This document shows positions 4,849 to 62,131 of a stretch of 64,000 nt of DNA, one piece after another. The notes beneath the pieces are model-generated. The model worked only from the letters and a program-made list of their open reading frames with translations. It was not told where the DNA came from and did not search any database. The DNA lies in NCBI GenBank assembly GCA_049840735.1, contig JASGJN010000013.1:672001-736000 (forward strand), in the 5' to 3' direction. The number at the start of each line of letters is the position of its first letter. Position 1 is the first letter of the stretch. Source of the stretch: Anaeromyxobacter sp. (lineage in GTDB: Bacteria; Myxococcota; Myxococcia; Myxococcales; Anaeromyxobacteraceae). Both the position numbers and the translations under genes were made by a program.

Positions 4849-5537
4849 GCCCGCAGCCAGCCCAGGTCCGGCAGCCCATCTCCATGGAGGCGCTCGACGC
4901 CGCCGAGCCGGTGCTCGATCCGGTCGAGCGGGTCTCCGAGACCTGCTTCGGCCTCATCATGGCGCTCACCTTCGTCGGCTCGATCGTGGCCGCGGAGGGC
5001 GAGGACGCCAGCCCGCACACCATCTTCGTGGCCGCGCTGGGGTGCAACCTGGCCTGGGGGCTTGTGGACGGGGTGATGTACCTGGTCCACACCCTGGCCC
5101 GCCGCGGCGCCCGCCACGCGCTGGCCCGCGCCGTCCACGCCGACCCCGGGCCGGCCGCCCTGCCGCTGCTCCGCGCCGCGCTCCCGGCCGGCCTCTCCCC
5201 GGCCGTCGGCGACGACGCGCTGGCCGCCATCGCCGCGCGCATGGCGGCCTCGCCGGACGTGGTGCGCCGGCCGGTGCTGCGCGGGAAGGACTGGCTGGCC
5301 TCGCTCCTCATCCTGGCGGTGGTGACGGTGGCCACCTTCCCGGTGGTGCTCCCCTTCGTGCTCTTCCAGGACCTGCAGCTGGGGCTCCTGGTGTCGCGCG
5401 TGCTCACGCTGGCCATGCTGCTGGCCGGCGGCGCGGTGATCGGCCGGCAGTCCGGCTTCGGCGCCTGGCGCGCCGGGTTCCTGATGGTGGCGGTGGGGGT
5501 GGCGCTGACGGCCATCGTGGTGGCGCTGGGCGGCTGA
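4845..5537 (+). CDS. VIT1/CCC1-like membrane protein
   Basis: ATGA overlap with SulP stop; LDPVERVSE..FGLIMALTF, GCNLAWGLVDG, TFPVVLPF; several TM helices. Confidence 0.7.
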   Translation: MSPQPAQVRQPISMEALDAAEPVLDPVERVSETCFGLIMALTFVGSIVAAEGEDASPHTIFVAALGCNLAWGLVDGVMYLVHTLARRGARHALARAVHADPGPAALPLLRAALPAGLSPAVGDDALAAIAARMAASPDVVRRPVLRGKDWLASLLILAVVTVATFPVVLPFVLFQDLQLGLLVSRVLTLAMLLAGGAVIGRQSGFGAWRAGFLMVAVGVALTAIVVALGG

Positions 5538-5559
5538 GCGGGTCGAGCGGTGGGGGGAA

Positions 5560-5597
5560 GGTCCGCGGCGCGGACCCCACCGGTCGCGGCGCGGACC
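5560..5597. promoter_or_regulatory. Tandem 17-bp palindromes GGTCCGC-N3-GCGGACC (putative enhancer-binding protein sites)
   Basis: Perfect copy 5560-5576 and imperfect copy 5581-5597, 21 bp apart; same pair at 15219-15256. Confidence 0.7.
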
Positions 5598-5649
5598 ATG
5601 GGCGGGGGGACGCGGCGCGCAAGTGCGCGTCCGGACGCGAGCTGCTGCG

Positions 5650-5665
5650 CGGCACGCCGGTTGCT
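5650..5665 (+). promoter_or_regulatory. Sigma54 (-24/-12) promoter
   Basis: CGGCACGCCGGTTGCT: GG 5651-52, N10, GC 5663-64. Confidence 0.8.
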
Positions 5666-5677
5666 CAACCGGCCGCC

Positions 5678-6133
5678 ATGACCACTCCCCTCACCGCCCT
5701 CCCCTCCGTCCATGTCTCCCCCACCAGCGAGCAGCGCGCCCAGCCGGGCCGCTTCGAGGAGGCCCTGCGCGGCGCCGCCTCCGGGTTCGTCTCCGGCGCG
5801 GCGGCCGGCCTGCAGCTGGCGGCCCCCTACGTCCCCGGCGGCACGGTGCTCTCGGCGGCCGTCCGGGGCGCCACCTCGGCGGCCAGCTCGGCCGCAGCGG
5901 CCGCGGCCTCCGGGGCCGCGTCCGGCGCCGCCGCCGGCGCGGCCAGCTCCGGCAGCGAGGGCGACCTGCTCGAGGCCACGCGCGCGCTGCAGCAGCAGTC
6001 GCAGTCCTTCAACCTGCAGTACCTGCAGCTGCAGGAGGGCATGCAGCGGGAGAGCCGGGAGTTCGCGGCGCTCTCCAACGTCATGAAGGTGAAGCACGAC
6101 ACCGCCCGGTCCACCATCCAGAACATCCACTGA
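5678..6133 (+). CDS. T3SS-associated protein, putative needle/filament (SctF-like) subunit
   Basis: ATG 5678; C-terminal helical segment [36 protein letters not shown]; first gene before rod-like gene and sctJ. Confidence 0.5.
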
Positions 6134-6149
6134 GCCGGCCGAGACGGAG

Positions 6150-6497
6150 GTGACCGTGACGCCCATCCTTCCTGCCGGCGCCTCGCCGGCGCTCGCCCCA
6201 ACCCCGGCCCCCACCGCGCGCGGCCGGTTCGCCGCCCTGCTGGAGGGGACGCTCCCCGCCGTCGCCCCGCGCACCGTCCAGCCCCCCGGCAAGGCGCTGC
6301 TGCACGCCGTGGAGCGGGCCCAGGCCCGGCTCGACGGCGTGCTCGCGGCCTCCCGCGCCGGCCGCACCTTCACCGCGCAGGAGCTGCTGGGCCTGCAGTC
6401 CGAGGCCTACCGCGCCGCGCAGACCGTCGACCTGGCCGCGCGGCTGGTGGAGCAGGGCGCCCAGTCGGTGAAGCAGGCGCTCAACACGCAGGTGTGA
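6150..6497 (+). CDS. Putative T3SS inner-rod (SctI-like) protein
   Basis: C-terminus ELLGLQ..AY.....DLAARLVEQGAQSVKQALNTQV resembles SctI/HrpB2 ends; immediately upstream of sctJ. Confidence 0.6.
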   Translation: MTVTPILPAGASPALAPTPAPTARGRFAALLEGTLPAVAPRTVQPPGKALLHAVERAQARLDGVLAASRAGRTFTAQELLGLQSEAYRAAQTVDLAARLVEQGAQSVKQALNTQV

Positions 6498-6505
6498 GGG
6501 TGCGC

Positions 6506-7234
6506 ATGCCCACCGTCTCGCGCGCGGGCGGCCTGGCGCTGGCGCTGGCCGGCCTGGCCGGCTGCGGCCGCTCCGAGCTCTTGCACGGCCTCGACGAGCG
6601 CCAGGCCAACGAGGTGCTGGTGGCGCTGGGCGAGGCGGGAGTCGCCGGCGAGAAGGTCCGCGACGCCGGCGCGGAGGGGACCTGGCAGATTGAGGTCCCG
6701 GCCGGCCAGGCGGCGCCGGCGCAGCGGCTCCTCTCCGAGCGCGCCCTGCCGCGCCCGCGCCCGCCCGGGCTGGGCGAGGTCTTCGGCGCCGGCTCGCTGG
6801 TCCCCACCGCGGTGGAGGAGCAGGCCCGCTACGCCCACGCGCTCTCCGGCGAGCTGGCCCGCTCGCTGGAGGGGCTGGACGGCGTGGTCGGGGCGCGGGT
6901 CCACCTGGCGCTGCCCGGGCCCGACCGGCTGGGGCTCGCGGACCGCCCGCGCGCCCGCGCCGCGGTCCTGCTCCGCTGCCGCCCCGGCGCCTGCGCTGCG
7001 CTGCGCGGGCTCGACCCCGGGCTGCGGGCGCTGGTCGCGGGCGCCGCGCAGGGGCTGGACCCGGCGGACGTGGCGGTGGTGCTGGCGCCGGCCGCCGAGG
7101 CGCCCGCGCCTCCGGTCCAGGGCTCCACCCCGGCGGCGCGCTACCTGGCGCTGGCCGCTGCGGCTGCGCTGGGGGCCGCCGCAGCGCTGGGCGCGGGGTT
7201 CGCGGCGCGGCTGCGGCGCAGGCCGCGCGCGTGA
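6506..7234 (+). CDS. sctJ: T3SS inner-membrane ring lipoprotein SctJ
   Basis: Lipobox LAGC, LLHGLDERQANEVLVAL, LVPTAVEEQARY, ELARSL..LDGVVGARVHLALP, C-terminal TM; alternative GTG start 6494. Confidence 0.9.
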   Translation: MPTVSRAGGLALALAGLAGCGRSELLHGLDERQANEVLVALGEAGVAGEKVRDAGAEGTWQIEVPAGQAAPAQRLLSERALPRPRPPGLGEVFGAGSLVPTAVEEQARYAHALSGELARSLEGLDGVVGARVHLALPGPDRLGLADRPRARAAVLLRCRPGACAALRGLDPGLRALVAGAAQGLDPADVAVVLAPAAEAPAPPVQGSTPAARYLALAAAAALGAAAALGAGFAARLRRRPRA

Positions 7235-7536
7235 GCCCGGAGGACCGGCGCCTGGCCGCGCTGCTGGCGGCGCTGCTCCCCGCGCGCGCCGCGGCCGTGC
7301 TCGCCCGCGGCCCCGGCGCGGCCGCGCAGGAGGCGGCGCGGCTGGCCGGGCTCCCGCGCCAGGACCGGCTCGCGGCGCTGGAGCGCGCGCTGGAGCGGGA
7401 GGGCGCCGCCGATCCCGCCGCGACCGCGGCGCTGGAGCGCCCGCGGATGGCCGCCGCGCTGGCGGAGCTGGCGCGCGGCGGCGGGGCGGAGCTGCCTCCG
7501 GTGCTGGTGCGGCTGCTGCGCGAGCGGCTGGGGTGA
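7231..7536 (+). CDS. Hypothetical protein in SctK position
   Basis: GTGA overlap with sctJ stop; Ala/Leu/Arg-rich helical; assignment by position only. Confidence 0.5.
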   Translation: MSPEDRRLAALLAALLPARAAAVLARGPGAAAQEAARLAGLPRQDRLAALERALEREGAADPAATAALERPRMAAALAELARGGGAELPPVLVRLLRERLG

Positions 7537-7697
7537 CGGGACGCGGGCGGGCCGGGTCCCGGGCCACGCCGTTCAAGGCGCCGCACCCGCCGGCCCTCCC
7601 CGCGCGCGCGGGTCTGCGCGGTTCCGCGCAACCACTTCACTCGCCGCGCGACCTGGCCGGTGAGGTAGTCTGCCCCCGCACCGCCCCGGGGCCCGCC

Positions 7698-9985
7698 ATG
7701 ATCCGCCAGTTTGCTCTCCACTCCGATGCCCTCCCCCCCCAGGCACGCGTTCGCGCCCTGAGAGGCCGGGAGCGGCTCTCCCAACCGTACGCCTTCGACG
7801 TGTTCCTCGAGCTGGACTCGGCCGCCGCCGACCTGGGCGCCGCGGTCGGGCAGCCAGCGACGCTGCGCCTCAACGGTCCGCTCGGGGAGCCCCGGGACGC
7901 CATCCACGGGATTCCTCTCGTCCATCGAGCTGCTGGACACCCGGTCCGACCACGAGCTGTGCCGCGCCGTCCTCGTGCCCCGGCTCTGGTGGCTCGCCCA
8001 GAACCGGCACAGCCGCGTCTTCGTGGGGGACTCCGTCCCGGCGATCATCAATCAGGTGCTGCGCAAGGCTGGCTGGACCCCCGACGACTACCGGCTGGCC
8101 CTGGCCGGTCGACCGGGAAAGGGTTACTGCCCGCTCGAGCACGTGTGCCAGTACCGCGAGAGCGACCTCGACTTCCTCTCGAGGTGGATGGAGCGGGAGG
8201 GCATCTACTACTACTTCGAGCAGGCCGACGCCCACGAGAAGCTGGTGATCGTGGACGCGGCGGAGGACCACCGCGAGCGGACGGCGGGCGCCCACCGCTT
8301 CGTCCCCCGCACCAGCGGCGAGGCCAACCGCGTCGAAGGCTTCCGCACCTTCCGCTTCGCCGCCCAGGCGCAGCCCGCCGGCGTGCGGCTGGCCGACTAC
8401 AACTACCTCAACCCTGACCTGCCCGTGCGCCACGAGGAGCGGCGCGGCGAGGGACCGCTGGTGTCGCTCTTCGGCGAGAACATCCCCTCGCCCGACGAGG
8501 CCCAGTGGCTCACCCAGATCCGGACCCAGGAGCTCCGGGCACGGCAGGTGCTCTATCGCGGGACGGGCTGCGTCCACGGCATCCATCCGGCCAGCAGCTT
8601 CTCGCTGGAGGAGCACCCGCGCTTCGACAAGGAGCTGCTCGCCGTCGAGGTGCTCCACCGCGGCACCGATCTCCGAGGGGGCGGCGTGGGGGCGGGAGGC
8701 CATCGAGGAGGCGGCGGGCGAGCCGCTGCCGGATGGCTACGAGGCGGAGGTGGTGGCCATCCCCGCCACCGTCCAGTACCGGCCTCCCCGGCTGGCCCCG
8801 ACGCCGCGCATCACCGGCCTCGAGACGGCGGTGATCGACGGGGAGGCCGACGAGCGCTACGCGCAGCTCGACGAGCACGGGCGGTACGCCGTCCGGATCC
8901 GCTTCGACGAGAGCGATCTCGGCCCCGGCCAGGCCTCCACCCGCGTCCGCATGCTGCAGCCGCACGGGGGCAGCCAGGAAGGCTTCCACTTCCCGCTGCG
9001 CAAGGGGACCGAGGTGATGCTCGCCTTCGTGGGCGGAGACCCGGACCGCCCGGTCATCGTGGGCGTGGGCCCGAACGCCCACAAGCCCAGCCCGGTCACC
9101 CGCAAGAACGCCACGCAGAACGTGATCGTGACGGGCGGCCTCAACGCCCTGGTGATGGAGGACACCCAGGGCGCAGAGTACGTGCGCAGCGAGTCGCCCG
9201 CCAGCCGGAGCTTCCTGCACCTGGGCGCGCCCGAGAAGGCCCTGGGCAAGAACCTGGTGCTCTCGACCGACGGGACGGGGCTGGTGCACACCGGCAGCGA
9301 CCTCACCGTCGAGACCCTCGGCGCCCGCGCCGACGACGTGACCGGCGACCTGACCGAGACCTACCGCGCCGCGCAGCAGACGACCGTGCACGGCGCGCGC
9401 GAGGACACGGTCAAGGGGAAGGTGACCGAGCGCTTCGAGGCCGGACACGAGCACAAGGTCCTGGGCGGCGGCGTGGTCCGCGAGGTCACCGGGGGCGAGA
9501 CCGAGAAGGTGGTCGGTGCGCGCACCCAGACCATCGAGGGCGCCGTCGACCAGACCATCAAGGGTGCGCAGACGCTCACGCACGATGGCCCGATCACCCA
9601 GACCGTGAAGGGCGGGGTCACCCAGACCGTCAACCCCGGGAACGTGGCCATCAACGTGCCCGCCGGGACCTTCAAGGTCGACGCCAGCGGCGAGGTGCTG
9701 CTCACCTCCAAGACCAGCGCCCAGTTCTCCGCGCCAGAGGCGAAGCACATCTGGCCGAAGCTGGTGAGCCTGACCTGGACCAAGTACGCGGTGACGGCGC
9801 ACGCGGCCACCGTCGCGAGCCTCGTCACGAACCTCCACGGCACCAAGATGGACTTCAACCTCCTCAAGGTCGACCAGTCGGCGGGCGTGGTCCAGAACAC
9901 GCCGGCCAAGTTCGAGAACGTGGGCCAGGCGCTCGGCTTCGGAGCCTTCGCCATCAAGTACTACGCGCTCACCATCCTGGGCTGA
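7698..9985 (+). CDS. vgrG: T6SS spike protein VgrG (about 761 aa; two apparent frameshifts near 7912 and 8674, probably sequencing errors)
   Basis: GRERLSQPYAF, QYRESDLDFLSRWMEREGIYYYF, DEHGRY.VR, GFHFPLRKGTEV..AF..GDPDRP, beta-helix repeats; one-base corrections join three ORFs. Confidence 0.9.
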
Positions 9986-10007
9986 TCTCCCCACCGCCGG
10001 AGCCCCC

Positions 10008-10475
10008 ATGCTGATGCCAGAGCTCATCCGCTTCCTCTGGGCGTTCATCCTCGCCTGCGTTGCGCTCATGATCTTCCCCTTCTCGGACACCGGCATCCTG
10101 GCGGGCTTCCCCCGCCTGCTCCGCGTGGCCCAGTCGCTGCGCTGGGTGTTCCCGATCCTCTCGGTGATCCTCTTCGTGGTGGCGGGGCGCCTGGATGGGC
10201 GGCGCACGGACCGCCTGCTGGCGAGCGGGCGCAGCGCGCCGGCCACCGTGCTCGAGGTTCGCGATCGCGGCATCTCGATCGGCGAGAGCCCGGTGCTGAC
10301 GGTGAAGCTGCGGGTGATGCCGGAGGGCGCGGCGCCGTTCGAGGCGGAGGTCGCCTTCGTCCCCTCCCGCGTCACCATGGGGATTGTCCAGGCCGGCGCC
10401 GCGGCGACGGTGCGCTATGACCCCGCCGACCCCGGCACCATCGCCGTGGAGAGCGTGATGGTGTCGTCCCACTGA
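10008..10475 (+). CDS. Membrane protein, two TM helices plus small beta domain (DUF3592-like)
   Basis: Two hydrophobic N-terminal segments, then G..APATVLEV and VRYDPADP. Confidence 0.6.
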   Translation: MLMPELIRFLWAFILACVALMIFPFSDTGILAGFPRLLRVAQSLRWVFPILSVILFVVAGRLDGRRTDRLLASGRSAPATVLEVRDRGISIGESPVLTVKLRVMPEGAAPFEAEVAFVPSRVTMGIVQAGAAATVRYDPADPGTIAVESVMVSSH

Positions 10476-10485
10476 CCGCCCGGCC

Positions 10486-13081
10486 ATGAAGATCGTCAAG
10501 CCGCAGCGGCTCTCGCTCCTCTCCCGCACCTTCGAGCATCGGAGGACCATCCGCCTCTCGGTGGCGGCGCTGGTGCTCTTCGATCTGGAGGACCCGCGCC
10601 GCATCCTCACCGAGGCCAGCCTCTGGAAGACGCTCCCGCCCGAGCTGGGCCGCGACGCGGCCCTGGACGCGGCCATGCCCAAGGCGCGGGCCGAGTTCCT
10701 GGTCACCGGGTTCGCCTTCCCGCCAGGCGGCGCGCCCGCCATCGCATGCGCGCCGTGCGCGGCGATCGGACCGCTGGAGAAGACGCTCCGCGCCATCGGC
10801 GACCGCACCTGGGTGGACGGCGTCGCCTCCTCGCCCGTCCCCTTCACGCGCCTCCGGCTCGGCTGGGAGCATGGGTTCGGCGGGCCGAAGTTCCCCCAGA
10901 ACCCGCTCGGCAAGGGGGCCGCGCCCATGCCCGGCCCAGACGGCCAGGGGAAGGTCCACCCGCTCCCCAACCTCGAGGATCCCCGCCAGCCCATCCGCTC
11001 CCTGCGCGACCGGCCGGCGCCGGCCGGCTTCGGGCCCATCGACCTCACCTGGCCGCAGCGCGCGCGCAAGGCCGGCACCTACGATTGCCGCTGGCAGGAG
11101 ACCACCTACCCTGGCCTGCCGGACGACCTGGACTGGACGTTCTTCAACGTCGCCGCCGAGGACCAGCAGCGGGACGCCCCGTTCCAGCCGGGCGAGCCGT
11201 TCCGCCTGGAGCACCTGCACCCGGAGCGCCGCTGCATCGAGGGTCGGCTGCCTGGCGCGGTGGCGCGCTGCTTCGCCACCATCCGCACGCCGCAGGGAGA
11301 GGCGTTCCGCGAGATCCCGACCCGGCTCGACACGGTCTGGTTCTTCCCGCACCTGCTGCGCGGCGTGCTCGTCTTCCACGGCTCGACCGCGGTCGCCGAG
11401 GACGACGCCGACGACGTGCTGCACCTGGTCGCGGCGCTGGAGGAGGCTGGACGGCCCCGCCCCGCGGACCACTACCGGGAGGTGCTGGCGCTGCGGCTCG
11501 ACCGCCAGCGTGGCGCGCTGGCCATGCTGGACGAGGCGGCGCTGGTGCCGCCCTGGCCCGGCCTCGCCGAGCCGTTCGACCCCGGCGACGCGCCGGAGCC
11601 GGAGGTGGACCTGCTGGCCGAGAACCAGCGCCGCGCCGCCGATCGGGCCCTGGCGGAGCTCCGCGAGACCCTGGCCGCAGAGGGCTACGCCATCCCCGAG
11701 CCCCCGGGCCCGCCGCCGGCGGGAGGCGGCGCCGGCGCCGGCGCCGAGCGCTCGATGGCGGAGATGGTGGCGCAGGCGCAGGCGGTGCAGGCCTGGGCCG
11801 AGCAGGGGCAGGCAGAGGCCAGGGAGGAGCTGCGCGCAGCGCTGGCCGCGCAGGGGCTCGATCCCGACGCGCCGCCGCCGGGCGGCCCCCCGACCTTCAG
11901 CGCAGACGAGGAGCTGGCCGGGCTCCGGGCCGCGGCCGCGGAGGCGCCGGACGGCGCGTTCGCGCGGATGGCCTCGGGATCCGTCCACCGAGCCACGGCT
12001 GCGCGAGGCCGAGAACGCCATGCGTGAAGGGTACCGGCTCACCGCGCACCACGGCGCGCCCGCCGCCCCCCGCGACGCGGCCGCCGCCCGGGCACTCCGG
12101 GAGGCCCTGCTGGCCGGCCTCGCGGCCGGCGAGAGCATGGACGGCCGCGACCTGACCGGCGCGGACCTGGCCGGCGCTGCGCTCGCAGGCGCGAACCTGG
12201 CCGGCGCGTTCCTGGAGGGGGCGAAGCTGGCCGGGGCCGACCTCCGCGGCGCCGATCTCTCGCGGGCCGTGCTGGCCCGGGCCGACCTCTCGGGCGCGGA
12301 CCTGGGCGGCGCGCGGCTGGCCGGCGCGAACCTGGGCGGCGCCGCGCTGCGCGACGCTCGGCTGGCCGAGGCGGACCTCACGGCGGCCATCCTGAACCGG
12401 GCCGAACTCCGCGGGGCCTCGCTGGCCGGGGCCCGCGCCGAGAAGGCAGAGCTGGGCGAGGCGCGGCTGGCCGGCGCCGACCTCTCCGGCCTGCGCGCTC
12501 CCGGGATCGTCCTGCAGAAGGTCGATCTCACCGGGCTCCGGCTGTCCGGAGCCGACCTGTCGCAGGCGACGCTCATCGAGTGCCGCCTCGACCGGGCCGA
12601 CCTGTCCGGCGCGATCATGGAAGGCGCGACGCTGCTCTCCTCCCAGGCGTGCGGCGCCGACCTGCGGAAGGCCCGGCTCGCGCGCATCCGGGTGGTGGGT
12701 GAGAGCAGCCTGGCGGAGGCGGACCTGCGCGAGGCCGACCTCGACGGCGCCAACCTGCGCGGCGCGAAGCTGTCGGGGGCGCGCCTGGAGGGGGCGCGCC
12801 TGGGCGCCGCCGACCTGTCCGGCGCCGACCTGCGCGGCGCCCGGCTCGCCGGCGCCACCGCCCGCGACTCACGGTGGGTCCGGGCCGATCTGACGGGCGC
12901 CGTCGCCGACGGGGCCGATTTGATGGGGGCCATCCTCCAGAAGGCCACGCTCTCCGGCGCACGGTTCCACGGCGCGAGCCTGTACGGCGCGGACCTCTCG
13001 CGCGTGGTCGTCCAGACGCCGCTCGCGCTGGAGTCCGCGAACGTGAAGAAGGTGCGCTTTCGCCCGGTGAGGGTGCGGTGA
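10486..13081 (+). CDS. DUF2169 T6SS adaptor fused to pentapeptide repeats (TagAB-like; about 864 aa, apparent frameshift near 11977)
   Basis: MKIVKP.RLSLL, LDAAMPK...EFLV.G, FGG....NPLGKG, PAGFGP, GTYD..W, FFNVA..DQQ, LDTVWFFP; C-terminal A(D/N)L.G repeats in the next frame. Confidence 0.85.
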
Positions 13082-14137
13082 CCGCCGACGAGCTCCGCGC
13101 GCTGGCCCGCTCTGGCCAGCCCATCACCGCGCTCGATCTCGCCGGCAGCGACCTGCAGGGCGCCGACCTGTCCGGCGCGGTGTTCGAGCGCGTCTCGTTC
13201 CGCGGCGCCCGGCTGGAGGGGGCCACGCTGCGCGGGTCGCTCCTGGGCGAGTGCGAGCTGGGCCAGGCCGCGCTCGACGGCGCCGACCTGCGGCAGGTGG
13301 TGCTCGACCGCTGCCGGGCCGAGGGCGCCCGCCTCGGCGAGGCCCGGCTCGGCTCCGCCCGCCTGCTCCGGTGCAATCTCTCCGGCTGCGATCTCGTCCG
13401 GGGCGGAGCTCCTCCGGACCGCCTTCTCCTCCTGCCGCCTCGCCGGCGCGCGCCTCACCCGTGCTCGGGCTACCGAGAGCTCGCTCCTCGACTGTGACAC
13501 CGCGGGGATCGACCTCTCCGGCGCCCGCCTGGAGCGGGCCGTGCTGGGCGGGGCCGACCTGACCACCGCCAAGCTCGACGGGGCGACGTTCGAGCTGACC
13601 GTGCTCGCCGCGACCCGGCTCGCCGGCGCGTCGCTCGGCGGCGCCGCCTTCCCGCGCTGTCAGCTGGTGGAGGCGGACCTGACCGCCTGCGACCTCCGGG
13701 GCGCGGACCTCACCGGCGCGAACTTCAAGGGGGCCACCCTCGAGCGCGCCCGCCTCGACGAGGTGCGCGCGGAGAACGCCCTCTTCCCGGGAGCGCGGCT
13801 GGCCGGCGCCTCCCTGGTGGGCGCCAGGCTCCGCCAGGCCATCCTGGCCGACGCGGATCTCACCGGCGCCGATGCGTCGGGCGCCGACCTGCAGCAGGCC
13901 ATCCTGCAGCGCGCGCGCTGCAGCGCCGCCCGGCTTGCGGGCGCCGACCTCACCTACGCCGACCTGTCGCACGCCAATCTCACCGGGGCCGATCTGACCG
14001 GCGCGAAGGTCTTCCGCGCCCGGCTGCACCTGGCGCGGACCGCCCGCGCCCTGATCCCCGGACGCAGCCTGGCCCTGGGCGACGACGCCGAGCTGGCCGA
14101 GGCCGAGCGGTACCGGCCCTCTCTCCCCCCGAGGTGA
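13078..14137 (+). CDS. Pentapeptide repeat protein (TagB-like; about 352 aa, apparent frameshift near 13396)
   Basis: GTGA overlap with upstream stop; continuous ADLxG/ARLxG repeats across two frames. Confidence 0.85.
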
Positions 14138-14140
14138 ACG

Positions 14141-14791
14141 ATGATCCACGCACTCAAGCCCTCGCTGCCCGCCGCCCCCTGCCTCGAGATCGGGACGGTG
14201 GTGAGCTGCCTGGACGGCCGCATCACCGTCGTGAACGCCCAGGGCGAGTGGCGGGCACGCCGCGCCGTGAGCTGCCTGGTGGCGCCCGAGCCCGGCGACC
14301 TGGTGCTCCTCCTCGATGGTCTGGCGGGCGAGGCCTTCGTCACGGCGGTGCTGGCCCGCGAGGCCGGGGTGCCGCTCCGGCTCGAGGCGGCCGGCGACGT
14401 GGCGTGGCACCTGCCCGAGGGGCGGTTCTCGGTCGCGGCCGGCGGCGGGCTCGACCTCGCCACCACGGCGCGCGCCAGCGTCGAGGCCGCGGAGCTGCGC
14501 CTCACCGCGGGCGAGGCGGGGTTGCAGGTGCAGCGGCTCTCCTTCCTGGGACGGATCGTCCAGGCGCAGGTCGAGTCGCTGAAGCTGGTGGCCGGTGCGC
14601 TCGACCAGACCCTGGAGCGGCTCTGGCAGCGCGTGCGCCGCTCCTACCGCTTCGTCCAGGAGGACGACCACGTGCGCGCCGGGAACCTGGACTACGCCGC
14701 CCAGGAGAGCGCCCATGTCCGCGGCAGGAACGCCCTGGTCACCGCCGACCAGCTCGTGAAGGTCGACGGCGGCCAGGTCCACATCGGCTGA
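14141..14791 (+). CDS. DUF3540 protein (TagC-like)
   Basis: ARRAVSCLVAPEPGDLVL, VTAVLAR, SYRFV..DDHVRAG.LDY, LVKVDGGQVHIG. Confidence 0.85.
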   Translation: MIHALKPSLPAAPCLEIGTVVSCLDGRITVVNAQGEWRARRAVSCLVAPEPGDLVLLLDGLAGEAFVTAVLAREAGVPLRLEAAGDVAWHLPEGRFSVAAGGGLDLATTARASVEAAELRLTAGEAGLQVQRLSFLGRIVQAQVESLKLVAGALDQTLERLWQRVRRSYRFVQEDDHVRAGNLDYAAQESAHVRGRNALVTADQLVKVDGGQVHIG

Positions 14792-14801
14792 GGGAGCCCC
14801 C

Positions 14802-15197
14802 ATGTTCGCCAACACCCAGCTTTCCGGCCTCGACGTCGGCTTCCCGGACGTCTGCCTCACGCCCGCGGCCCCCTCCCCCATCCCCATCCCCTACCCCAAC
14901 CTCGCCGCCGGCCCCATGGGCGTGCCGGCGGCCTACCACGTGCTCCTGGGGATGGCGCCCGCCCACAACCTGGGCACGGTGGTGCCCCTGACCAACGGTG
15001 ACAATGCCGGCGTGCTCACCGGCGTCGCGTCCGGCACGGTCATGGGACCGGGCCGCCACCTCACCGGCGCCTTCACGGTGCTGGTGGGCGGGATGCCGGC
15101 CACGCGCCTCACCAGCGTGGCCCTCCAGAACTCGACCAACTGCCCCGGGGTCCGGCTGGTCCCGAGCCAGGTCAAGGTACTGCTGCTCGCCCCCTGA
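14802..15197 (+). CDS. DUF4150 PAAR-like spike tip protein (TagD-like)
   Basis: MFANTQ..G...GFPDVCLTP...PIPYPN, GD..G...GV.SG, PSQ.KV. Confidence 0.9.
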   Translation: MFANTQLSGLDVGFPDVCLTPAAPSPIPIPYPNLAAGPMGVPAAYHVLLGMAPAHNLGTVVPLTNGDNAGVLTGVASGTVMGPGRHLTGAFTVLVGGMPATRLTSVALQNSTNCPGVRLVPSQVKVLLLAP

Positions 15198-15218
15198 AGC
15201 GGCGCGCCCGCGCCGCAC

Positions 15219-15256
15219 GGTCCGCCACGCGGACCCCGTGGTCCGCGCCGCGGACC
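15219..15256. promoter_or_regulatory. Tandem perfect palindromes GGTCCGC-N3-GCGGACC
   Basis: 15219-15235 and 15240-15256, 21 bp apart. Confidence 0.75.
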
Positions 15257-15308
15257 GTCCTCCGCGGGCCCGCCCGTGCAAGCCCGCGGATCCAGGCGTC
15301 CCGCCCCC

Positions 15309-15324
15309 TGGCACGCGCCGTGAA
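15309..15324 (+). promoter_or_regulatory. Sigma54-like promoter (GA instead of GC at -12)
   Basis: TGGCACGCGCCGTGAA; same distance to palindromes and to start codon as the 5650 promoter. Confidence 0.6.
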
Positions 15325-15336
15325 GTGCCGGCCAGC

Positions 15337-16305
15337 GTGCTCTTCCTCGACCTGCCCCGCCTGTCGCGCGGGTTCGCCGCCCTCGCTCCAGAGGCCCGCC
15401 GCCTGGGCGACGAGGCCGCGGCTGGCGCCGGCGCCGCGCTGGGGGCGCTGCTCGGCTGCGAGGTGGGCGTCCGCGGCCGGGCCACGCCGGGGCCGGGCGG
15501 GCCGCTGCTGGGCGCGGCACGCCTCCCGCTGGCGCTGCAGGCGGTCCCGGCCGCCGGCGCCCTGGAGGTGGAGGCGGCGCTGGTGGCAGCGGTGGCGGAC
15601 CGGCTCGCGGGCGGCGACGGGGCGGTCGCCGGCGCCACCGCGCTCACGCCGGTGGAGGGCAGCCTGCTGGAGCTGCTCGCGCTGACCGCGCTGGACGGTG
15701 CCTGCCGCGTTCCCCAGCTGGAGGCGGCGCTGGGGCCGCGCCTGGCACGCACCGGCCCTTCGCCGGCTTCGCCGCTCTGCATCGAGCTGGAGCTGGCCGC
15801 CGGTCCGCTGCGCGGCCGCGGGCGGCTGCTGCTCGAGGCGGGGGCGGTGCGGGCGCTGGCGGGCGCGCCTCCGCTGCCGGGCGGGAGCCTGGCCCTGCCG
15901 GTCTCGTATCGGCAAGGCCGGGCGGAGCTGCTGCCTGAGGAGCTGGAGGCGCTCTTCCCGGGCGACGTGGTGCTGCTCGAGGCGGAGCGCGGCGAGGTGC
16001 TGGTGCTGCCCGGCGGCGCGCGGGCCAGCGGGTTCCTGGACGAGGAGGGCTTCCACGTGGACGAGACGGGGCGCACCAGCCGGACGGCGCAGCTGCCGGT
16101 GGTGCTGGAGGTGGAGCTGGCGCGGGTGGAGCTGACGCTCTCGGAGCTCTCGGCGCTGGCGCCGGGCGGGGTGGTGCCGCTGGCGGTGGACCGCCGCGGC
16201 CGCGTGACCCTGCGGGCCGGGGAGCGGGCCGTGGCGCAGGGCGAGCTGGTCGAGATCGAGGGGGCGCTGGGCGTGCGGATCACCGCGCTGGAGGTGGGGC
16301 CGTGA
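15337..16305 (+). CDS. sctQ: SctQ / FliM-FliN family C-ring protein
   Basis: C-terminal SpoA domain LPVVLEVELARVELTLSEL..L.PG.VV, GELVEIEGALGVRI; GTG 15337. Confidence 0.8.
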   Translation: MLFLDLPRLSRGFAALAPEARRLGDEAAAGAGAALGALLGCEVGVRGRATPGPGGPLLGAARLPLALQAVPAAGALEVEAALVAAVADRLAGGDGAVAGATALTPVEGSLLELLALTALDGACRVPQLEAALGPRLARTGPSPASPLCIELELAAGPLRGRGRLLLEAGAVRALAGAPPLPGGSLALPVSYRQGRAELLPEELEALFPGDVVLLEAERGEVLVLPGGARASGFLDEEGFHVDETGRTSRTAQLPVVLEVELARVELTLSELSALAPGGVVPLAVDRRGRVTLRAGERAVAQGELVEIEGALGVRITALEVGP

Positions 16306-16667
16306 TCGCCGCCCGCCTCCACGCCGCGGGCCCCTGGGCCCGGCGCCTGCTGCCCGTCCTCGGCGGCGCGCTCGCGCTGGGGTTCCTGGCCCTGCTGGCG
16401 GCCGCGCCCGGGGGCTCCGGCGCCGCCGCCGCGCGCATCTCGCTGCTCGCCGGGGCCCTGACGGCGTTGGCGGTGCTGGCCCGGCGCCTGCGCGTCCGCG
16501 CCGGCGCGCCCGCGCCGCTCCGCGTCCTGGCCCGCGCCGCCCTCTCGCGCGAGGCGGGGGTGGCGCTGCTGGAGGTGCACGGGCGCCCGCAGCTCGTCGG
16601 GTACGGCCCGGGCGGCGTGCGGGTCCTGGGGGAGGTGCCGCCCCCGCCCGCGGAGGACGCGCCGTGA
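16302..16667 (+). CDS. FliO-like small membrane protein
   Basis: TM segments then LRVLARAALS...VALLEV.GR..LVGYG..GV..L; between sctQ and sctR. Confidence 0.65.
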   Translation: MIAARLHAAGPWARRLLPVLGGALALGFLALLAAAPGGSGAAAARISLLAGALTALAVLARRLRVRAGAPAPLRVLARAALSREAGVALLEVHGRPQLVGYGPGGVRVLGEVPPPPAEDAP

Positions 16668-17338
16668 TCGCCGCCCTCCTCGTCCCGGACGCGGGGCCGG
16701 TGGCGGCGCGGCCGGCCGAGCTGCTGGTGCTCCTGGCCGCCCTGGCCGTGGTGCCGGCGGCGCTGGTGATGCTCACCTCCTTCCTCAAGATCTCGGTGGT
16801 CCTCTCCATCGCGCGGTCGGCGCTGGGCGCGCCGCAGGTGCCGCCGTCCTCGGTGGTCACCGGGCTCTCGCTGGTCCTGTCGCTCCTGGTGATGACGCCG
16901 GTGGCGGAGCAGTGCCTGGCCGCGGCCGGGCGCGAGGACGGCGCCGGCGCGGAGGCCGCGCTGGCGCGCCTGGAGCGCGCCTCCGGCCCGCTGCGCGGCT
17001 TCCTGCAGCGGTTCGCCAGCCCGGACGACCGGGCCGCCTTCGCCGAGGTGGCCACGCGCCTCAGGCCGGTCGGCGCGGCGCCGCCGGGCGAGTCCGACCT
17101 GGCGGTGCTGGCGCCGGCCTTCGTGGTCTCGGAGCTGCGCCGCGCCTTCACCATCGGCTTCCTGGTCTTCCTCCCCTTCCTGGTGGTGGACCTGGTGGTC
17201 GCGAACGTCCTGCTGGCGCTGGGGCTCACCCAGCTCTCGCCCACCTCGGTCTCGCTGCCCTTCAAGCTGCTCCTCTTCGTCGCCGTGGACGGCTGGCGCG
17301 TGCTGGCCCGGGCGCTGGCGCTCTCCTACCTGGGGTGA
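16664..17338 (+). CDS. sctR: Export gate SctR (FliP family)
   Basis: TSFLKISVVL...RSALG..QVPP, PAF..SEL..AF.IG, LPFLVVDLVVANVLLALG, SLPFKLLLFV.VDGW. Confidence 0.92.
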   Translation: MIAALLVPDAGPVAARPAELLVLLAALAVVPAALVMLTSFLKISVVLSIARSALGAPQVPPSSVVTGLSLVLSLLVMTPVAEQCLAAAGREDGAGAEAALARLERASGPLRGFLQRFASPDDRAAFAEVATRLRPVGAAPPGESDLAVLAPAFVVSELRRAFTIGFLVFLPFLVVDLVVANVLLALGLTQLSPTSVSLPFKLLLFVAVDGWRVLARALALSYLG

Positions 17339-17607
17339 CCGTGGATCCGGCCCTGCTGCAGCTCGCCCGCGAGGCGCTGGTGGCCGCCTCGCTGGCCTCG
17401 GCGCCGCCGCTCGCCGCCGCGCTGGCGGTCGGGCTCCTCACCGGCGTGCTCCAGGCGGCCACCACGGTGCAGGAGCCTTCGCTGGCGGTGGTGCCGCGGC
17501 TGGCGGCGGTGCTCGGGGCGCTGCTGGTGGCCGCCCCCTGGATCGCCGCGCAGGTGGTCCGCTTCGCGGTGGCCTGCCTCGAGGCGGCCGCCTGGAGGTG
17601 GCCGTGA
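17335..17607 (+). CDS. sctS: Export gate SctS (FliQ family)
   Basis: VGLL.G.LQAAT.VQEPSL..VPRL; GTG 17335. Confidence 0.85.
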   Translation: MTVDPALLQLAREALVAASLASAPPLAAALAVGLLTGVLQAATTVQEPSLAVVPRLAAVLGALLVAAPWIAAQVVRFAVACLEAAAWRWP

Positions 17608-18368
17608 CCGCGCCGGGGCTGGAGGGCTTCTGGCCGCTGGCCGGGGCGGCCCTGCTGCACGCGCTGCGGCTGCTCCCGCTGGCGCTCACCTCGCCGCTGC
17701 TGGGCGGCCCGCTCCTGCCGCCGGCCGGCCGGCTGGGGCTGGCCTTCGGGCTGGGCGGGGTCGCGGCCTGGCTCGCCGCGCCGCCGCCCCCGGCCAGCTG
17801 GCCGGCCGCGTGCGCCACCGAGGCGGCGCTGGGGCTGGGGCTGGCGGTGCTGGCGGCCGCGCCGCTGGAGGCGGCCCGCGGCGCGGGGCGGCTGGTGGAC
17901 ACCTTCCGCGGCGCCACGCTGGCCGAGCTGCACGTGGCCCCGCTGCGCCAGCGCGAGAGCGCCGCCGGCGACCTGCTGGCGCAGCTGGTGCTGGTGCTGG
18001 CCGGGTGGGCCGGCGGGGAGCGGCTGCTGGTCGGCGGCCTGCTCGGCTCCTTCGCGACGCTGCCCGCCGGCGCGCCGTTCGCGGGCGCGGGGCTGCGCGA
18101 GGCGGTGCTGGCCTCCAGCGCCGCGCTGCTCTCCAGCGCGGTGGCGCTCTCGCTGCCGGCCGCCGCCGGCGTGCTCTGCGCCGACCTGGCCCTGGCCGGC
18201 GCCTCCCGCGTGGCCCCGCAGCTCGGCGCCGTCAACGCGGCCCAGCCGCTGCGCGCCACGCTGGGGCTCCTGGCCCTGGCCGGCGTGGCGGCCACCGCCG
18301 GAGGCCGGCTGGCGGGGCTCCTGCTGGCGCCGCTGCAGCTGCCGCTCCCGGCGGGAGGGCTGCCGTGA
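17604..18368 (+). CDS. sctT: Export gate SctT (FliR family), divergent
   Basis: EAALG, AGRLVD..RG, ADL....SRVAPQL; position between sctS and sctU. Confidence 0.8.
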   Translation: MTAPGLEGFWPLAGAALLHALRLLPLALTSPLLGGPLLPPAGRLGLAFGLGGVAAWLAAPPPPASWPAACATEAALGLGLAVLAAAPLEAARGAGRLVDTFRGATLAELHVAPLRQRESAAGDLLAQLVLVLAGWAGGERLLVGGLLGSFATLPAGAPFAGAGLREAVLASSAALLSSAVALSLPAAAGVLCADLALAGASRVAPQLGAVNAAQPLRATLGLLALAGVAATAGGRLAGLLLAPLQLPLPAGGLP

Positions 18369-19393
18369 CGTCCCGCACCGAGGAGCCCACCCCGCGCCGG
18401 CTGCGCGAGGCCCGGCGCCGCGGCCAGGTGGCCGCCAGCCGCGAGCTGACCGCGGCGGCGGCGCTGGCCGGCGGCCTGCTGGCCCTGGCCGCGACCGCGC
18501 CGTGGGTGGGCGCTGCGCTGCTGGCGCAGCTGCGCGAGGGGCTGGCCCGCGCGGTGCTGGCGCCGACGGCGCCCGGGCCGGCGCTGACCGGCGCGGCCGC
18601 GGCGGTGATGCGGCTGGTGCTGGCGCCTTGCCTGGGGGCGCTGGTGGCGGGCGCGCTGGCCGGCGCGGCGCAGTCCGGGTTCCTGTTCAGCCCCGGGGCG
18701 CTGCGGCCGCGCCTCTCGCGGCTGTCGCCCGCGGCGGGGCTGCGCCGGCTGGTGACCCCGGCCCAGCTCGCCGGGGTGGCGCTGGGGCTCCTCAAGGCGG
18801 CGCTGCTCCTGGCGGTGGCGTGGCGCTGGGCGCGCGCGGAGGCCCCCGGCGTGCTCGCGCTTGCGCGGCTCGAGCCGGACGCCGCCTGGCGCTGGCTGCC
18901 GGCGCTGGCCGGCCTCCTGGCGCGGCTGGCGGCGGCGCTGGTGGCCCTGGGGCTTTTGGACCTGCTCCTGGCGCGGCGGCGGCACCGGCGCGGGCTGCGC
19001 ATGACCAGGGACGAGGTCCGGCGGGAGCACCGGGAGGACGAGGGTGACCCGGCGCTCCGCGCCGAGCGCCGCCGGCTGGGCCGGGCGCTGGTGGAGGCCG
19101 GCCCGGTGGCGCGCGCCACCGTGCTGGTGGTGAACCCGACGCGGCTCGCGGTGGCGCTCCGGCACCGGCGCGGCGGGGACGAGGCGCCGCGGGTGGTGGC
19201 CAAGGGCGCGGGGCGCGACGCCGCCCGGCTCCGCTCGGCGGCGCGGCGCGCCGGCGTGCCCATCGTGGAGAACGTGCCGCTGGCGCGGGCGCTCCACCGG
19301 CTGGTGGAGCTGGGCGACGAGATCCCCGAGGAGCTCTACGAGGGCGCGGCCGCGGTGCTGGCCCACCTCTACGGGCGGGAGGCCTCCCCGTGA
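18365..19393 (+). CDS. sctU: Export switch SctU (FlhB family)
   Basis: RTEEPTPRRLREARRRGQVA.SREL, MTRDEVRREHREDEGDP, VVNPTR, APRVVAKG, VPIVEN.PLARAL. Confidence 0.92.
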   Translation: MTSRTEEPTPRRLREARRRGQVAASRELTAAAALAGGLLALAATAPWVGAALLAQLREGLARAVLAPTAPGPALTGAAAAVMRLVLAPCLGALVAGALAGAAQSGFLFSPGALRPRLSRLSPAAGLRRLVTPAQLAGVALGLLKAALLLAVAWRWARAEAPGVLALARLEPDAAWRWLPALAGLLARLAAALVALGLLDLLLARRRHRRGLRMTRDEVRREHREDEGDPALRAERRRLGRALVEAGPVARATVLVVNPTRLAVALRHRRGGDEAPRVVAKGAGRDAARLRSAARRAGVPIVENVPLARALHRLVELGDEIPEELYEGAAAVLAHLYGREASP

Positions 19394-21444
19394 CCGCGCC
19401 CCTTCACCGGGCGCTGTCACGCCTGCGCGGCACCGGCGACGCGCTCTTCGCGCTGGCGGTGGTGGGGGTGGTGCTGCTCCTGGTCACCCCGCTGCCGCCG
19501 GCGGCGCTGGACGCGCTGCTGGCGGTCAACCTGGCCCTGGCGACGGCCATCCTGGTGGTCACGCTGCTGGCGCGCGACGCGCTGGGGCTGGCCAGCTTCC
19601 CCTCGCTCCTGCTGCTCACCACGCTCTTCCGGCTGGCGCTCAACGTCTCCTCCACCCGGCTGGTGCTGGCCCACGGCCAGGCGGGCCGCGTCATCGAGGC
19701 CTTCGGGCGGGTGGTGGTGCAGGGCGACCACGTGGTGGGCGCGGTGGTCTACGCGGTCATCACGCTGGTGCAGCTGCTGGTGGTGGCGCGCGGCGCCGAG
19801 CGGGTGGCGGAGGTGGCCGCCCGGTTCACGCTGGACGCGCTGCCGGGGAAGCAGCTCTCCATCGACGCGGACCTGCGGGCCGGGGCCATCGACGCGGCCG
19901 AGGCCCGCCGCCGGCGGCGGGCGCTGGAGCGCGAGGGGCAGCTGCACGGCGCCATGGACGGCGCGCTCAAGTTCGTGAAGGGGGACGCCCTGGCAGGCGT
20001 GGCCATCGTCCTCGTCAACGTGGTGGGCGGGCTGGTGGCCGGGGCGGTGCGCGGGCTGCCCCTGGCCGAGGCGGCGCGCCGCTACACGCTGCTGGCCATC
20101 GGCGACGGGCTGGTCTCGCAGCTCCCGGCGCTGCTCATCTCGGTGGCGGCGGGCGTGGCGGTGACGCGGGTGGCGGGCGAGGAGGAGGGCGCGACCCTGG
20201 GGCGCGAGCTGGCCCGGCAGCTGGCCGCGGCCCCGGTCGCGCTGGCGGTGGTGGCCGGGCTCTTGGCGGCGCTGGCGCTGGCGCCGGGGCTGCCGGCCTT
20301 GCCCTTCCTGCTGCTGGCCGGCGCGCTCGGCGCCGCCGCGCACCGGCTGGCCCGGCGCGCGGGGGCGCCGGCGCGCGCCCGCGAGCTCCCGCCGGCCGCC
20401 GGGGCCGAGGAGCCGCTGGGCCCGCCCGCGCCGGTGGTGATCGCGCTCGCCCCCGACCTGCACGCCCGGGCCGCGGCCGGCCCGTTCACCACCGAGGGGC
20501 TGGCGGCGCTGCGGCGCGAGCTGTGGAGCGCGCTGGGGGTGCGGCTGCCGGCGGTGGCGGTGCGGGCGGTGGAGGCGCCGCCGGGCGCCTTCACGGTGCT
20601 GCTGGACGAGGTGCCGGCGGGTGGCGGCCAGGCGCCGGCCTCGGAGGTGGTGGTGCTGGCCCCGCCGGACGAGCTGGCCCTCCTCGCCATCCCGGCCGCG
20701 CCGGAGGCGGACCCGCTCTCCGGCCGCACCGTCTCGGTGGTCCCGGCCGGCGCGGCCGCGCGCGCCGCGGCGCTGGCGCCGGTGCGCGACCCGCTGGAGC
20801 GCGTGCTGGCCACCACCGCCGGCATCCTGCGCCGCCAGGCGCGCCACCTGGTGGGCGTCCAGGAGGTGCAGGCGCTGCTGGACGGGCTCGAGCCCGCCGC
20901 GCCGGCCCTGGTGCGCGAGATCTCCCGGCAGGTGCCGGCGCCGGTGCTGGCCGAGGTGCTCCGGCGTCTGCTGGAGGAGGGCGTCTCGATCCGCCCGCTG
21001 GCGCTGATCCTCGAGGCGGTGCTGGAGGCGGGGCCGGGCCGCGGTCCGGCCGCGCTGGCCGAGGCCTGCCGACGGGCGCTGCGGCGCCACCTGGCCCACG
21101 CGCACGCCTCCGGCGGCGTGCTCGCGGTGCTGCTGCTCGATCCGGCGGTGGAGCAGGAGCTGCGCGACGCGCTGGCGGGCGACCTCCTCGCGCTCGACCC
21201 GCGCGCGGCGGTCCGGATCCTCGACGCGCTGGCGGCCGAGCTATCGGCCGGCGGCGCACCGGCGGCGCTGCTCACCAGCCCCGACGTGCGGAGGCCGCTG
21301 CGCGGCCTGGTGGCGCCGCGCTTCCCGGCGCTGCCGGTGCTGGCCTACGACGAGCTGCCGCCCGAGCTGCCGGTCCGTCCACTGGGGCGGGTCGCGGCGA
21401 GCGGGCGGCTGGACGGCGCGGTGGAGGGAGGCTTGACGGTGTAG
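19390..21444 (+). CDS. sctV: Export apparatus SctV (FlhA family)
   Basis: FPSLLL.TTLFRLALNVSSTR, GAERVAEVAARFTLDA.PGKQ.SIDADL, GAMDGA.KFVKGDA, IGDGLVSQ.PALL. Confidence 0.95.
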   Translation: MTAPLHRALSRLRGTGDALFALAVVGVVLLLVTPLPPAALDALLAVNLALATAILVVTLLARDALGLASFPSLLLLTTLFRLALNVSSTRLVLAHGQAGRVIEAFGRVVVQGDHVVGAVVYAVITLVQLLVVARGAERVAEVAARFTLDALPGKQLSIDADLRAGAIDAAEARRRRRALEREGQLHGAMDGALKFVKGDALAGVAIVLVNVVGGLVAGAVRGLPLAEAARRYTLLAIGDGLVSQLPALLISVAAGVAVTRVAGEEEGATLGRELARQLAAAPVALAVVAGLLAALALAPGLPALPFLLLAGALGAAAHRLARRAGAPARARELPPAAGAEEPLGPPAPVVIALAPDLHARAAAGPFTTEGLAALRRELWSALGVRLPAVAVRAVEAPPGAFTVLLDEVPAGGGQAPASEVVVLAPPDELALLAIPAAPEADPLSGRTVSVVPAGAAARAAALAPVRDPLERVLATTAGILRRQARHLVGVQEVQALLDGLEPAAPALVREISRQVPAPVLAEVLRRLLEEGVSIRPLALILEAVLEAGPGRGPAALAEACRRALRRHLAHAHASGGVLAVLLLDPAVEQELRDALAGDLLALDPRAAVRILDALAAELSAGGAPAALLTSPDVRRPLRGLVAPRFPALPVLAYDELPPELPVRPLGRVAASGRLDGAVEGGLTV

Positions 21445-21587
21445 CCGCCCGGGACCTGTCGGAACCGAACGGTCGGCGTGAGGCCGTCCGCCCTGAGCGT
21501 AGCGAGCCCGCCCGGGCTCGCGGAGCCGAAGGGCAGGTGCAGTCTGGGCCGAGCGGAAAGCTCGAACGATTCCGGCAGCTCAGCGAC

Positions 21588-21968
21588 TCAGACGCCGGCG
21601 GCCACGGGCGGCGTGCCCTGGCCCTCGCCGTCGTCACCGTCGTCGGTGTCGTCGTGGTCGTCTGGATCGTTGTCCGGAGGCAGCGCGCCCTCGATCCGGT
21701 TCACGCGGTCGCGCAGCTCCTTGCCGGTCCGGAACAGGATGCCGCGCTTGGGCCGGACCGGGATGACCTCACCGGTCTTGGGATTGCGGCCCTGGTAGCC
21801 GTCGTAGTGCTTGACGTGGAACGCGCCAAGCCCGCGAATCTCGATGTTTTCTCCCTTGCACAGGGCGTCCTTCATCGAGTCGAAGATCGTCTCGATGGTG
21901 GCCTCGGCCTGCTTCTGGGTCACACCGCGCTTCACGACGAGGATGTTGATGAGATCCGACTTCAGCAT
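21588..21968 (-). CDS. HU/IHF family DNA-binding protein with acidic tail
   Basis: MLKSDLI, IEIRGLGAF, GRNPKTGE, F..GKELRDRVN. Confidence 0.92.
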   Translation of the reverse strand: MLKSDLINILVVKRGVTQKQAEATIETIFDSMKDALCKGENIEIRGLGAFHVKHYDGYQGRNPKTGEVIPVRPKRGILFRTGKELRDRVNRIEGALPPDNDPDDHDDTDDGDDGEGQGTPPVAAGV

Positions 21969-62130: not shown

Positions 62131-62131
62131 C

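Follow-up and report, generated by a model that had tools for sequence, protein, structure and literature searches.

The stretch of Anaeromyxobacter sp. DNA analyzed in this study (64,000 nt, in the following the window) harbors a T6SS spike cassette inside a T3SS-like export locus (5678 to 21444), which raises the question of whether both form one secretion machine or are neighbors by chance. The gene order given in a preliminary description was recovered with Pfam and TIGRFAM profile matches: the vgrG cassette is located between the sctJ side and the sctQ side of the locus, and all genes are encoded on the + strand.

The flanking T3SS-like locus

The first operon starts with a gene (5678 to 6133) for a conserved 151 aa protein with a long C-terminal helix, followed by genes for a putative inner-rod (SctI)-like protein (6156 to 6497), the inner-ring lipoprotein SctJ (6506 to 7234; PF01514, TIGR02544, E 1e-40) and, as final gene, a conserved ORF of 101 aa (orf4, 7231 to 7536), which has orthologues in relatives and no Pfam match. 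The second operon comprises sctQ (15337 to 16305; TIGR02551, E 2e-23, PF01052), a fliO-like gene (16302 to 16667; PF04347) and the export apparatus genes sctR, sctS, sctT, sctU and sctV (16664 to 21444; PF00813, PF01313, PF01311, PF01312, PF00771), all of which are unbroken. As described before, no secretin was found by profile search among the genes of 5678 to 21444. A gene for a SctN-like ATPase with a FliH/SctL-like neighbor is located outside the window and outside both flagellar clusters (contig C17, position 171978) and presumably belongs to the same locus.

The arrangement of sctJ and sctRSTUV is the conserved one of the short Myxo NF-T3SS. According to the 2012 survey (PMC3459982), the latter shares with the window sctJ, a putative rod-like gene, sctQ and sctRSTUV in conserved order and a locus without secretin; the difference here is an insert of 7.7 kb between its two operons. 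The survey gives no known function, secretin or tip for the short locus and lists the Myxo systems as lacking SctF. The flanks of the cassette are a conserved, vertically inherited "short" myxobacterial T3SS-like locus of two operons. Judged from its gene content, it would correspond to T3SS(2) of M. xanthus (MXAN_5643-5654; name from PMC10196010). The long T3SS* (MXAN_2434-2464), which is needed for prey lysis (PMC12075869), is a different locus.

The first two genes had been labelled needle-like and rod-like. The rod-like protein matches PF17001 weakly (E 0.013, relatives to 1e-4); of nine sequences compared with this profile, seven gave a match, with E between 0.09 and 1e-4 and none reaching the cut-off. 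The 5678 protein itself gave no match. Its homologues weakly match HrpA, HrpF and needle families; the locus has been described as needle-less. A structure prediction for this protein (mean pLDDT 66) shows one confident long helix (residues 93–150) and no hairpin. Structure searches with it were uninformative, Foldseek returning no match and a wide search nothing beyond generic coiled coils (best Z 6.2), and a comparison with PDB sequences gave nothing under E 0.26. The first gene of the short locus may encode a divergent needle or pilin subunit.

The spike cassette and its counterparts

The insert (7698 to 15197) consists of six genes. The first is vgrG (7698 to 9985, approximately 762 codons; PF05954, PF04717, TIGR03361), which carries two frameshifts, near 7910 and 8677, and shares 50–64% identity with a VgrG of 760 codons that is unbroken in another genome of the genus (G015). 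It is followed by a gene (10008 to 10475) for a 155 aa membrane protein that carries a DUF3592-like domain and for which two membrane segments are predicted. In G015, five tandem paralogues of this protein occupy the same position; position and tandem paralogues make it a candidate immunity protein. The next genes are tvpAB/tagAB (10486 to 13081; DUF2169 and pentapeptide repeats, PF09937, PF00805) with one frameshift (11949–11978), both pieces of which match a single unbroken 884-codon frame in L133, and tvpB/tagB (13078 to 14137; PF00805) for a stand-alone pentapeptide-repeat protein with one frameshift near 13400, contiguous in G015. The cassette ends with tvpC/tagC (14141 to 14791; DUF3540, PF12059, E 5e-59) and the gene for a DUF4150 PAAR-like (PIPY) tip protein of 131 aa (14802 to 15197; PF13665, E 3e-38) with the PIPY motif in its translation and no toxin extension. 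The preliminary description had reported neither mobility genes nor edge repeats. In line with this, the profile search found no integrase or transposase among the cassette ORFs, and no repeats pairing the two edges were seen among the 20 direct-repeat families and 25 inverted pairs listed (the largest only), so that no autonomous mobile element was recognized among these ORFs and repeats.

TvpAB, TvpB, the DUF3540 protein TvpC and the DUF4150/PIPY protein are the features of a Class III Tvp module. Such a module (vgrG1-vai1-tvpAB-tvpB-tvpC-paar1) was shown to build the VgrG-PAAR tip for an ordinary T6SS in Serratia marcescens Db10 (PMC13373197); it contains the same genes in the same order as the window, as does synteny type C of PMC11883445. 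The layout is also the same, with a vgrG of 700–800 aa and a membrane protein gene directly after it (PMC13373197). The membrane proteins differ: Vai1 of Serratia is a DUF3192 protein with one membrane segment, whereas that of the window is DUF3592-like with two. Further differences from Serratia are the orphan site away from the T6SS core and the four assembly frameshifts. The likeness to Burkholderia T6SS-5 claimed previously stands for the order of the accessory genes downstream of vgrG (vgrG5-tagAB-tagB-tagC-tagD) but is not peculiar to T6SS-5, as this order belongs to a widespread class (PMC13373197). Unlike VgrG5 with its C-terminal effector domain, the VgrG of the window had no extra domain in its C-terminal piece by profile search, and the Burkholderia module is found inside the T6SS core cluster, whereas that of the window is on a different contig from the core. 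Related cassettes may be listed in the supplements of PMC13373197, which survey Tvp loci including Myxococcota. No report of such an arrangement was found in literature listings on T3SS-vgrG hybrids and on the short locus (subscription papers being mostly outside reach).

The insertion site in relatives and the T6SS of the same genome

An sctJ orthologue was found in 24 of 36 other genomes of the genus. The cassette is absent at this site from all 24 (the relatives not being independent samples): 21 loci have no insert, and in three the gap is occupied by unrelated genes, namely for glycoside hydrolase 12 or of the Sel1-repeat type. In three genomes from other genera of the same taxonomic order, the locus is contiguous as well. 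The native gap between the two operons is about 130 nt long.

DUF3540 was found in only one of the 36 genomes, G015, where the cassette adjoins a ComM-like ATPase gene. This genome (87% complete) encodes tssB and tssC, and the short-locus sctJ or sctQ was not found in it with the queries used. A contig scan for DUF3540 with a single-protein query found nothing, while an alignment-based scan gave 160 related loci, none of which has any of 11 T3SS-like genes in the sequence examined; 98 of them have at least 2.5 kb of downstream sequence, and sctQ is 0.55 kb from the DUF3540 gene in the window. Twelve further DUF3540 loci of the phylum also lack a T3SS-like gene. A T6SS sheath gene was present in all 12 other DUF3540 genomes tested.

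Searches of the genome gave no match for hcp, sheath, tssE or tssG in the window, as stated previously, and all 13 T6SS core components on contigs other than the window contig. TssJ, K, L, M, A, B and C are encoded on C15, the end of tssC, hcp, tssE, F and G and clpV on C19, and two more vgrG genes on C21. The core is split over two contigs, tssM contains a frameshift in the assembly, and with the larger gap between the two tssC matches on C15 and C19 taken as unassembled, about 38 codons of this profile are still unaccounted for.

Since this genome carries the genes for the rest of the T6SS at other sites, chance neighborhood is the most likely explanation. Taken together with the site comparison, the sequences make it highly probable that an orphan T6SS spike cassette separates the two operons of a secretion locus to which it is unrelated and is not part of a hybrid machine, a confidence that covers location and partner system and does not extend to the intactness of the cassette. 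Of the two possibilities raised in the preliminary description, this supports the orphan spike module that landed between two operons and leaves its headline, the hybrid, unsupported; two of the checks that it proposed, the survey of this site in relatives and the genome search for a T6SS core, speak against the hybrid. The comparison shows that a Class III Tvp spike cassette entered the gap of about 130 nt in this lineage. By analogy to Serratia (PMC13373197; PMC11883445), TvpAB, TvpB, TvpC and the PIPY protein might form a pre-complex, in which VgrG would replace TvpC, and the T6SS encoded on C15 and C19 would then receive the VgrG-PIPY spike on its Hcp tube and baseplate. The spike or the variable C-terminal end of VgrG may act on rival bacteria, with the membrane protein encoded after vgrG giving immunity.

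Promoter-like elements and alternative readings

Upstream of operon 1, a GC-rich palindrome (5561 to 5575), a candidate activator site, precedes a sigma-54-type −24/−12 box (CGGCAC-N5-TTGC, 5650 to 5665, + strand), which conforms to the sigma-54 consensus and also precedes the orthologous gene in 14 of 23 loci of relatives. The genome encodes rpoN. The palindrome has two matches in the whole window, the other, near-identical one (15241–15255) being part of an inverted repeat (15201 to 15274), a native upstream element of operon 2 with GC-rich counterparts after the orf4 stop codon in relatives (by eye). A sigma-54-like box before sctQ (TGGCAC-N5-GTGA, 15309 to 15324, + strand) was kept after the insertion and is conserved with or without insert: it was present at the expected distance in 23 of 23 loci, a descriptive count as the pattern was written after the sequences had been viewed by eye, and in two further relatives (background 4 in 5700 windows of 70 nt). 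The sigma-54 pattern is not enriched genome-wide over a reversed control (69 versus 156), and the weight of the sctQ box therefore lies on its conserved position. Two operons appear to make up the short locus, and a sigma-54-type box with a putative promoter stands before each of them. As the sctQ box is kept in every case, the gap appears to separate two transcription units.

The first vgrG codon is located 161 nt 3' of operon 1 on the same strand, and co-transcription is possible, since neither a terminator nor a clear promoter of its own was found. The cassette might then serve the T6SS and still be read through from the upstream sigma-54-type promoter, co-expressed with the T3SS-like operon without any physical hybrid, a reading compatible with an orphan spike. 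The G015 cassette is likewise directly downstream of a same-strand gene. The missing U-tract terminator noted earlier before vgrG is confirmed but uninformative, as the scan found none in all of 5400 to 21800, a GC-rich region, against a chance expectation of 1.1. Furthermore, TAGTCT at 7666–7671 in the left junction (7537 to 7697) is a weak candidate −10 element, and similar TAnnnT elements precede related vgrG genes (by eye); a sigma-70 promoter scan found nothing, and the junction has no fold stronger than in shuffled sequence. Read-through of this kind is judged somewhat unlikely.

The four frameshifts, absent from the preliminary description (two in vgrG, one each in tvpAB and tvpB), might alternatively be real, in which case the orphan cassette would be decaying and no spike made. 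Four in 7,435 nt of cassette compare with 1.4 expected at the genome rate (P for four or more approx. 0.056) and with none in 7,921 nt of the flanking T3SS-like genes (P for all four in the cassette 0.055). Against decay, 26 frame switches were counted in 135,939 aligned nt of the same assembly, affecting 21 of 112 conserved genes, two of them of 1,350 aa each with 89–95% identity, which we take to be RNA polymerase subunits. The aligned pieces of the cassette genes contain no in-frame stop, spans match those of intact homologues (762 versus 760 codons), and GC3 (0.87–0.97 throughout) matches the host. Because the assembly is frameshift-rich genome-wide, the frameshifts are probably sequencing errors rather than decay, which is rather unlikely.

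That the nesting is an artefact of this metagenome-assembled genome is very improbable. Frameshift errors are common in the assembly, and the start of C19 looks like a misjoin (about 25 kb at 61–66% GC joining the 74%-GC T6SS region mid-tssC), but both junctions of the insert are intergenic and interrupt neither orf4 nor the conserved elements upstream of sctQ, the same gap holds the unrelated inserts of three relatives, the GC3 of the cassette is that of the host, and the contig is 826 kb long.

Least credible of all is a machine in which the secretin-less apparatus of this lineage recently recruited the VgrG-PIPY spike, exported by it or capping a filament of the 5678 protein in place of the missing tip: the cassette lies inside the locus in the same orientation, the short locus lacks known function, secretin and tip (PMC3459982), and members of the 5678 family weakly match needle/pilin families, but the pairing occurs in one genome only (0/24 relatives, 0/160 and 0/12 cassette loci), and VgrG has retained the gp27-like hub for docking on Hcp, with Hcp and baseplate present. 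T3SS gates pass proteins as unfolded chains and are not known to admit a folded VgrG trimer.

Inserts are tolerated between the two operons of the short locus, and the cassette, a further orphan of the Class III Tvp type, indicates that the module moves among Myxococcota. A hybrid, if true, would represent a novel type of secretion machine and assign a function to the short locus; the short locus as two operons with sigma-54-type boxes and a possible needle or pilin gene in first position offers more testable leads than the hybrid.

Gene order and integrity of the cassette

Family scans of the window, which lies in a genome of 6.67 Mb (26 contigs, 74% GC), bore out the gene order given in the preliminary description. 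Between operon 1 (ending at 7536) and operon 2 (sctQ at 15337 to sctV, 21444) of a T3SS-like locus, an insert on the + strand (7698-15197) carries vgrG, a membrane gene, tvpAB (DUF2169-pentapeptide), tvpB (pentapeptide), tvpC (DUF3540) and a DUF4150/PIPY gene. Four frameshifts, all within this insert (two in vgrG, one each in tvpAB and tvpB), had been overlooked. For the genome-wide rate, a complete relative served as reference: 171 ORFs, taken from 400 kb of its sequence, were compared with this genome, and 112 were retained, each with a best identity of 55% or more and no less than 100 aa covered. Frame switches were present in 21 of these conserved ORFs (26 per 135,939 nt). At this rate, 1.4 frameshifts are expected in the cassette compared to four observed (P 0.056), and the flanks have none (P 0.22). 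Sequencing error is the likelier source; decay of the cassette, with real frameshifts, is less likely.

The nesting must also be considered as an assembly artefact, since an apparent misjoin is found in mid-tssC on contig C19 of the same assembly, but the cassette is cleanly joined to intergenic DNA on both sides. The C19 segment concerned (G000:C19:1-25330, approximately 25 kb at 61-66% GC) is joined to the T6SS region in mid-tssC, the first part of tssC ending contig C15, and is probably a misjoin or foreign DNA. Within the window, GC drops to 0.62-0.71 at 52000-63000 vs approximately 0.74, possibly marking acquired DNA. The arrangement of cassette and T3SS-like locus is real and, among the sequences examined, was seen in this genome only.

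A probable orphan spike module for the T6SS

The simplest account, and one in which we have high confidence, is that an orphan spike cassette of the Class III Tvp kind was inserted at a tolerant gap and serves the ordinary T6SS of the cell; the preliminary description had offered such an orphan module as its alternative. The own-genome search recovered the full T6SS core, with tssJ, K, L, M, A, B and the start of tssC at the end of C15, and the end of tssC, hcp, tssE, tssF, tssG and clpV on C19. Two further vgrG genes are located on C21, while no vgrG match was found in the core region, so its spikes would be supplied by orphan loci such as the window cassette. Beside the core, a second, Class II-like Tvp set (G000:C19:29600-33000; L002:14602-18623) comprises a stand-alone DUF2169 gene, a DUF4150-like gene and DUF6484, with no vgrG match nearby.

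According to a Serratia study, TvpAB, TvpB, TvpC and a PAAR-like protein form a pre-complex in which TvpC gives way to VgrG, each gene of the module is required for Hcp secretion via that spike, the membrane protein encoded after vgrG is an immunity protein, and the Burkholderia module belongs to Class III Tvp (PMC13373197). DUF2169 is described as the chaperone of PIPY tips (PMC11883445), and the translated tip protein of the window cassette contains the PIPY motif. The tail of the window VgrG recalls the cryptic toxic tail proposed for Serratia VgrG1 (PMC13373197); this C-terminal end (9700-9985) varies among related cassettes, and its last 26 residues are mildly hydrophobic (mean hydropathy 0.72).

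Among 36 further genomes from the genus, an sctJ orthologue was detected in 24, and none of these 24 carries the cassette between sctJ and sctQ. Twenty have sctQ within the same 3.7-kb locus without insert, and one has a contig break in the region, yet its orf4 ends directly next to the sequence upstream of sctQ. In the remaining three, this gap holds genes unrelated to the cassette, namely a glycoside hydrolase 12 gene in G008 and Sel1-repeat genes in G009 and G044 (possibly one event). The locus is likewise contiguous outside the genus, in three genomes from the same order. A separate 4.6-kb insert lies between fliO-like and sctR in G011 (C12; L042:9087-13733). Four complete genomes with the T3SS-like locus (G014, G006, G031, G032) gave no tssB match.

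DUF3540 was found in only one of the 36 genomes, G015, in whose cassette the vgrG and tvpB frames are unbroken and the membrane gene is present as five tandem copies; its neighbour is ComM-like. These divergent copies after vgrG (L051:4310-6843, G015:C127) resemble an immunity array, and tvpAB is relocated behind the PAAR-like gene. Among 400 other genomes drawn from the phylum, 12 matched DUF3540, 11 above the cut-off; these 11 and G015 all encode a sheath gene, and none of the 12 loci fetched (out of 14 from the draw) contained a T3SS-like gene. From an alignment-based scan, the 80 best of 191 metagenome loci and the 80 best of 188 genome loci were kept, with at least 2.5 kb of downstream sequence in 98 and at least 9 kb upstream in 77. 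None of these 160 contained any of 11 T3SS-like genes and 12 contained T6SS core genes, in non-independent samples, many loci being from related strains and some repeating the phylum set. As judged from sequence, synteny argues against the physical hybrid of T3SS-like apparatus and VgrG spike headlined earlier as a possibility, which, with a full T6SS core elsewhere in the genome, is highly improbable.

The flanking T3SS-like locus

A TGGCAC-N5-(G/T/C)TG box is located 28-47 nt upstream of the sctQ match in all 23 of the loci compared, the one in the window among them, and likewise in the two further insert-bearing relatives (background 4 in 5,700 windows of 70 nt); it was not found before sctQ in the three loci of other genera. 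Its -12 element is non-canonical (GTG/TTG-G/A) and kept across the genus. A canonical box precedes the first gene of operon 1 (5650; 14 of 23 relatives). Both boxes, which we take to be of sigma-54 type by their consensus, are preceded by one palindrome sequence (at 5561 in 5561-5665 and at 15241 in 15241-15324), which suggests a single activator for both operons; rpoN is present. The insertion gap is thus a putative boundary between two transcription units, and the cassette sits upstream of the operon 2 elements, which stay whole. A weak -10-like element precedes vgrG, and the cassette may be read through from operon 1, the terminator scan being powerless in this region. Just past sctV, a REP-like element of approximately 54 nt (21484-21537) has many genomic copies with 85-93% identity.

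The flanks fit the 'short' Myxo non-flagellar T3SS, reported to be vertically inherited, conserved in order and without secretin or needle (PMC3459982). For M. xanthus T3SS(2) (MXAN_5643-5654), presumably the same locus, a lack of involvement in prey killing is reported (PMC10196010); predation is linked instead to the long cluster (PMC12075869). A SctN-like ATPase with a FliH/SctL-like neighbour and an adjoining sigma-70-family gene (G000:C17:171978-173228; L295:7976-10065) is encoded outside two flagellar-type clusters and probably represents the ATPase module that the short locus lacks. One of these clusters (C17:313000-335500; L292, L293) encodes FliF, FliH, FliI, FlgI, FlgF/G, a sigma factor and a TPR protein and adjoins an Rhs/LysM gene, while the other lies near C17:486000-518000.

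The 151-aa product of the first gene of operon 1 (5678-6133) had no family match itself. Its family is conserved (510 matches among 8000 candidates scored), its named homologues come from Anaeromyxobacter-like assemblies, and 54 of 123 members matched the SrfA family. Weak matches among the 123 were to HrpA pilin (43), HrpF (30) and needle-F (4), with best E values of 0.003-0.005 and none at the cut-off; one related Atlas cluster has needle-F on 11% of its members. The predicted structure is one confident long helix, with which fold searches returned nothing informative. These weak needle and pilin matches contrast with the description of the short locus as lacking SctF; the family is a lead that concerns the conserved locus and does not depend on the insert.
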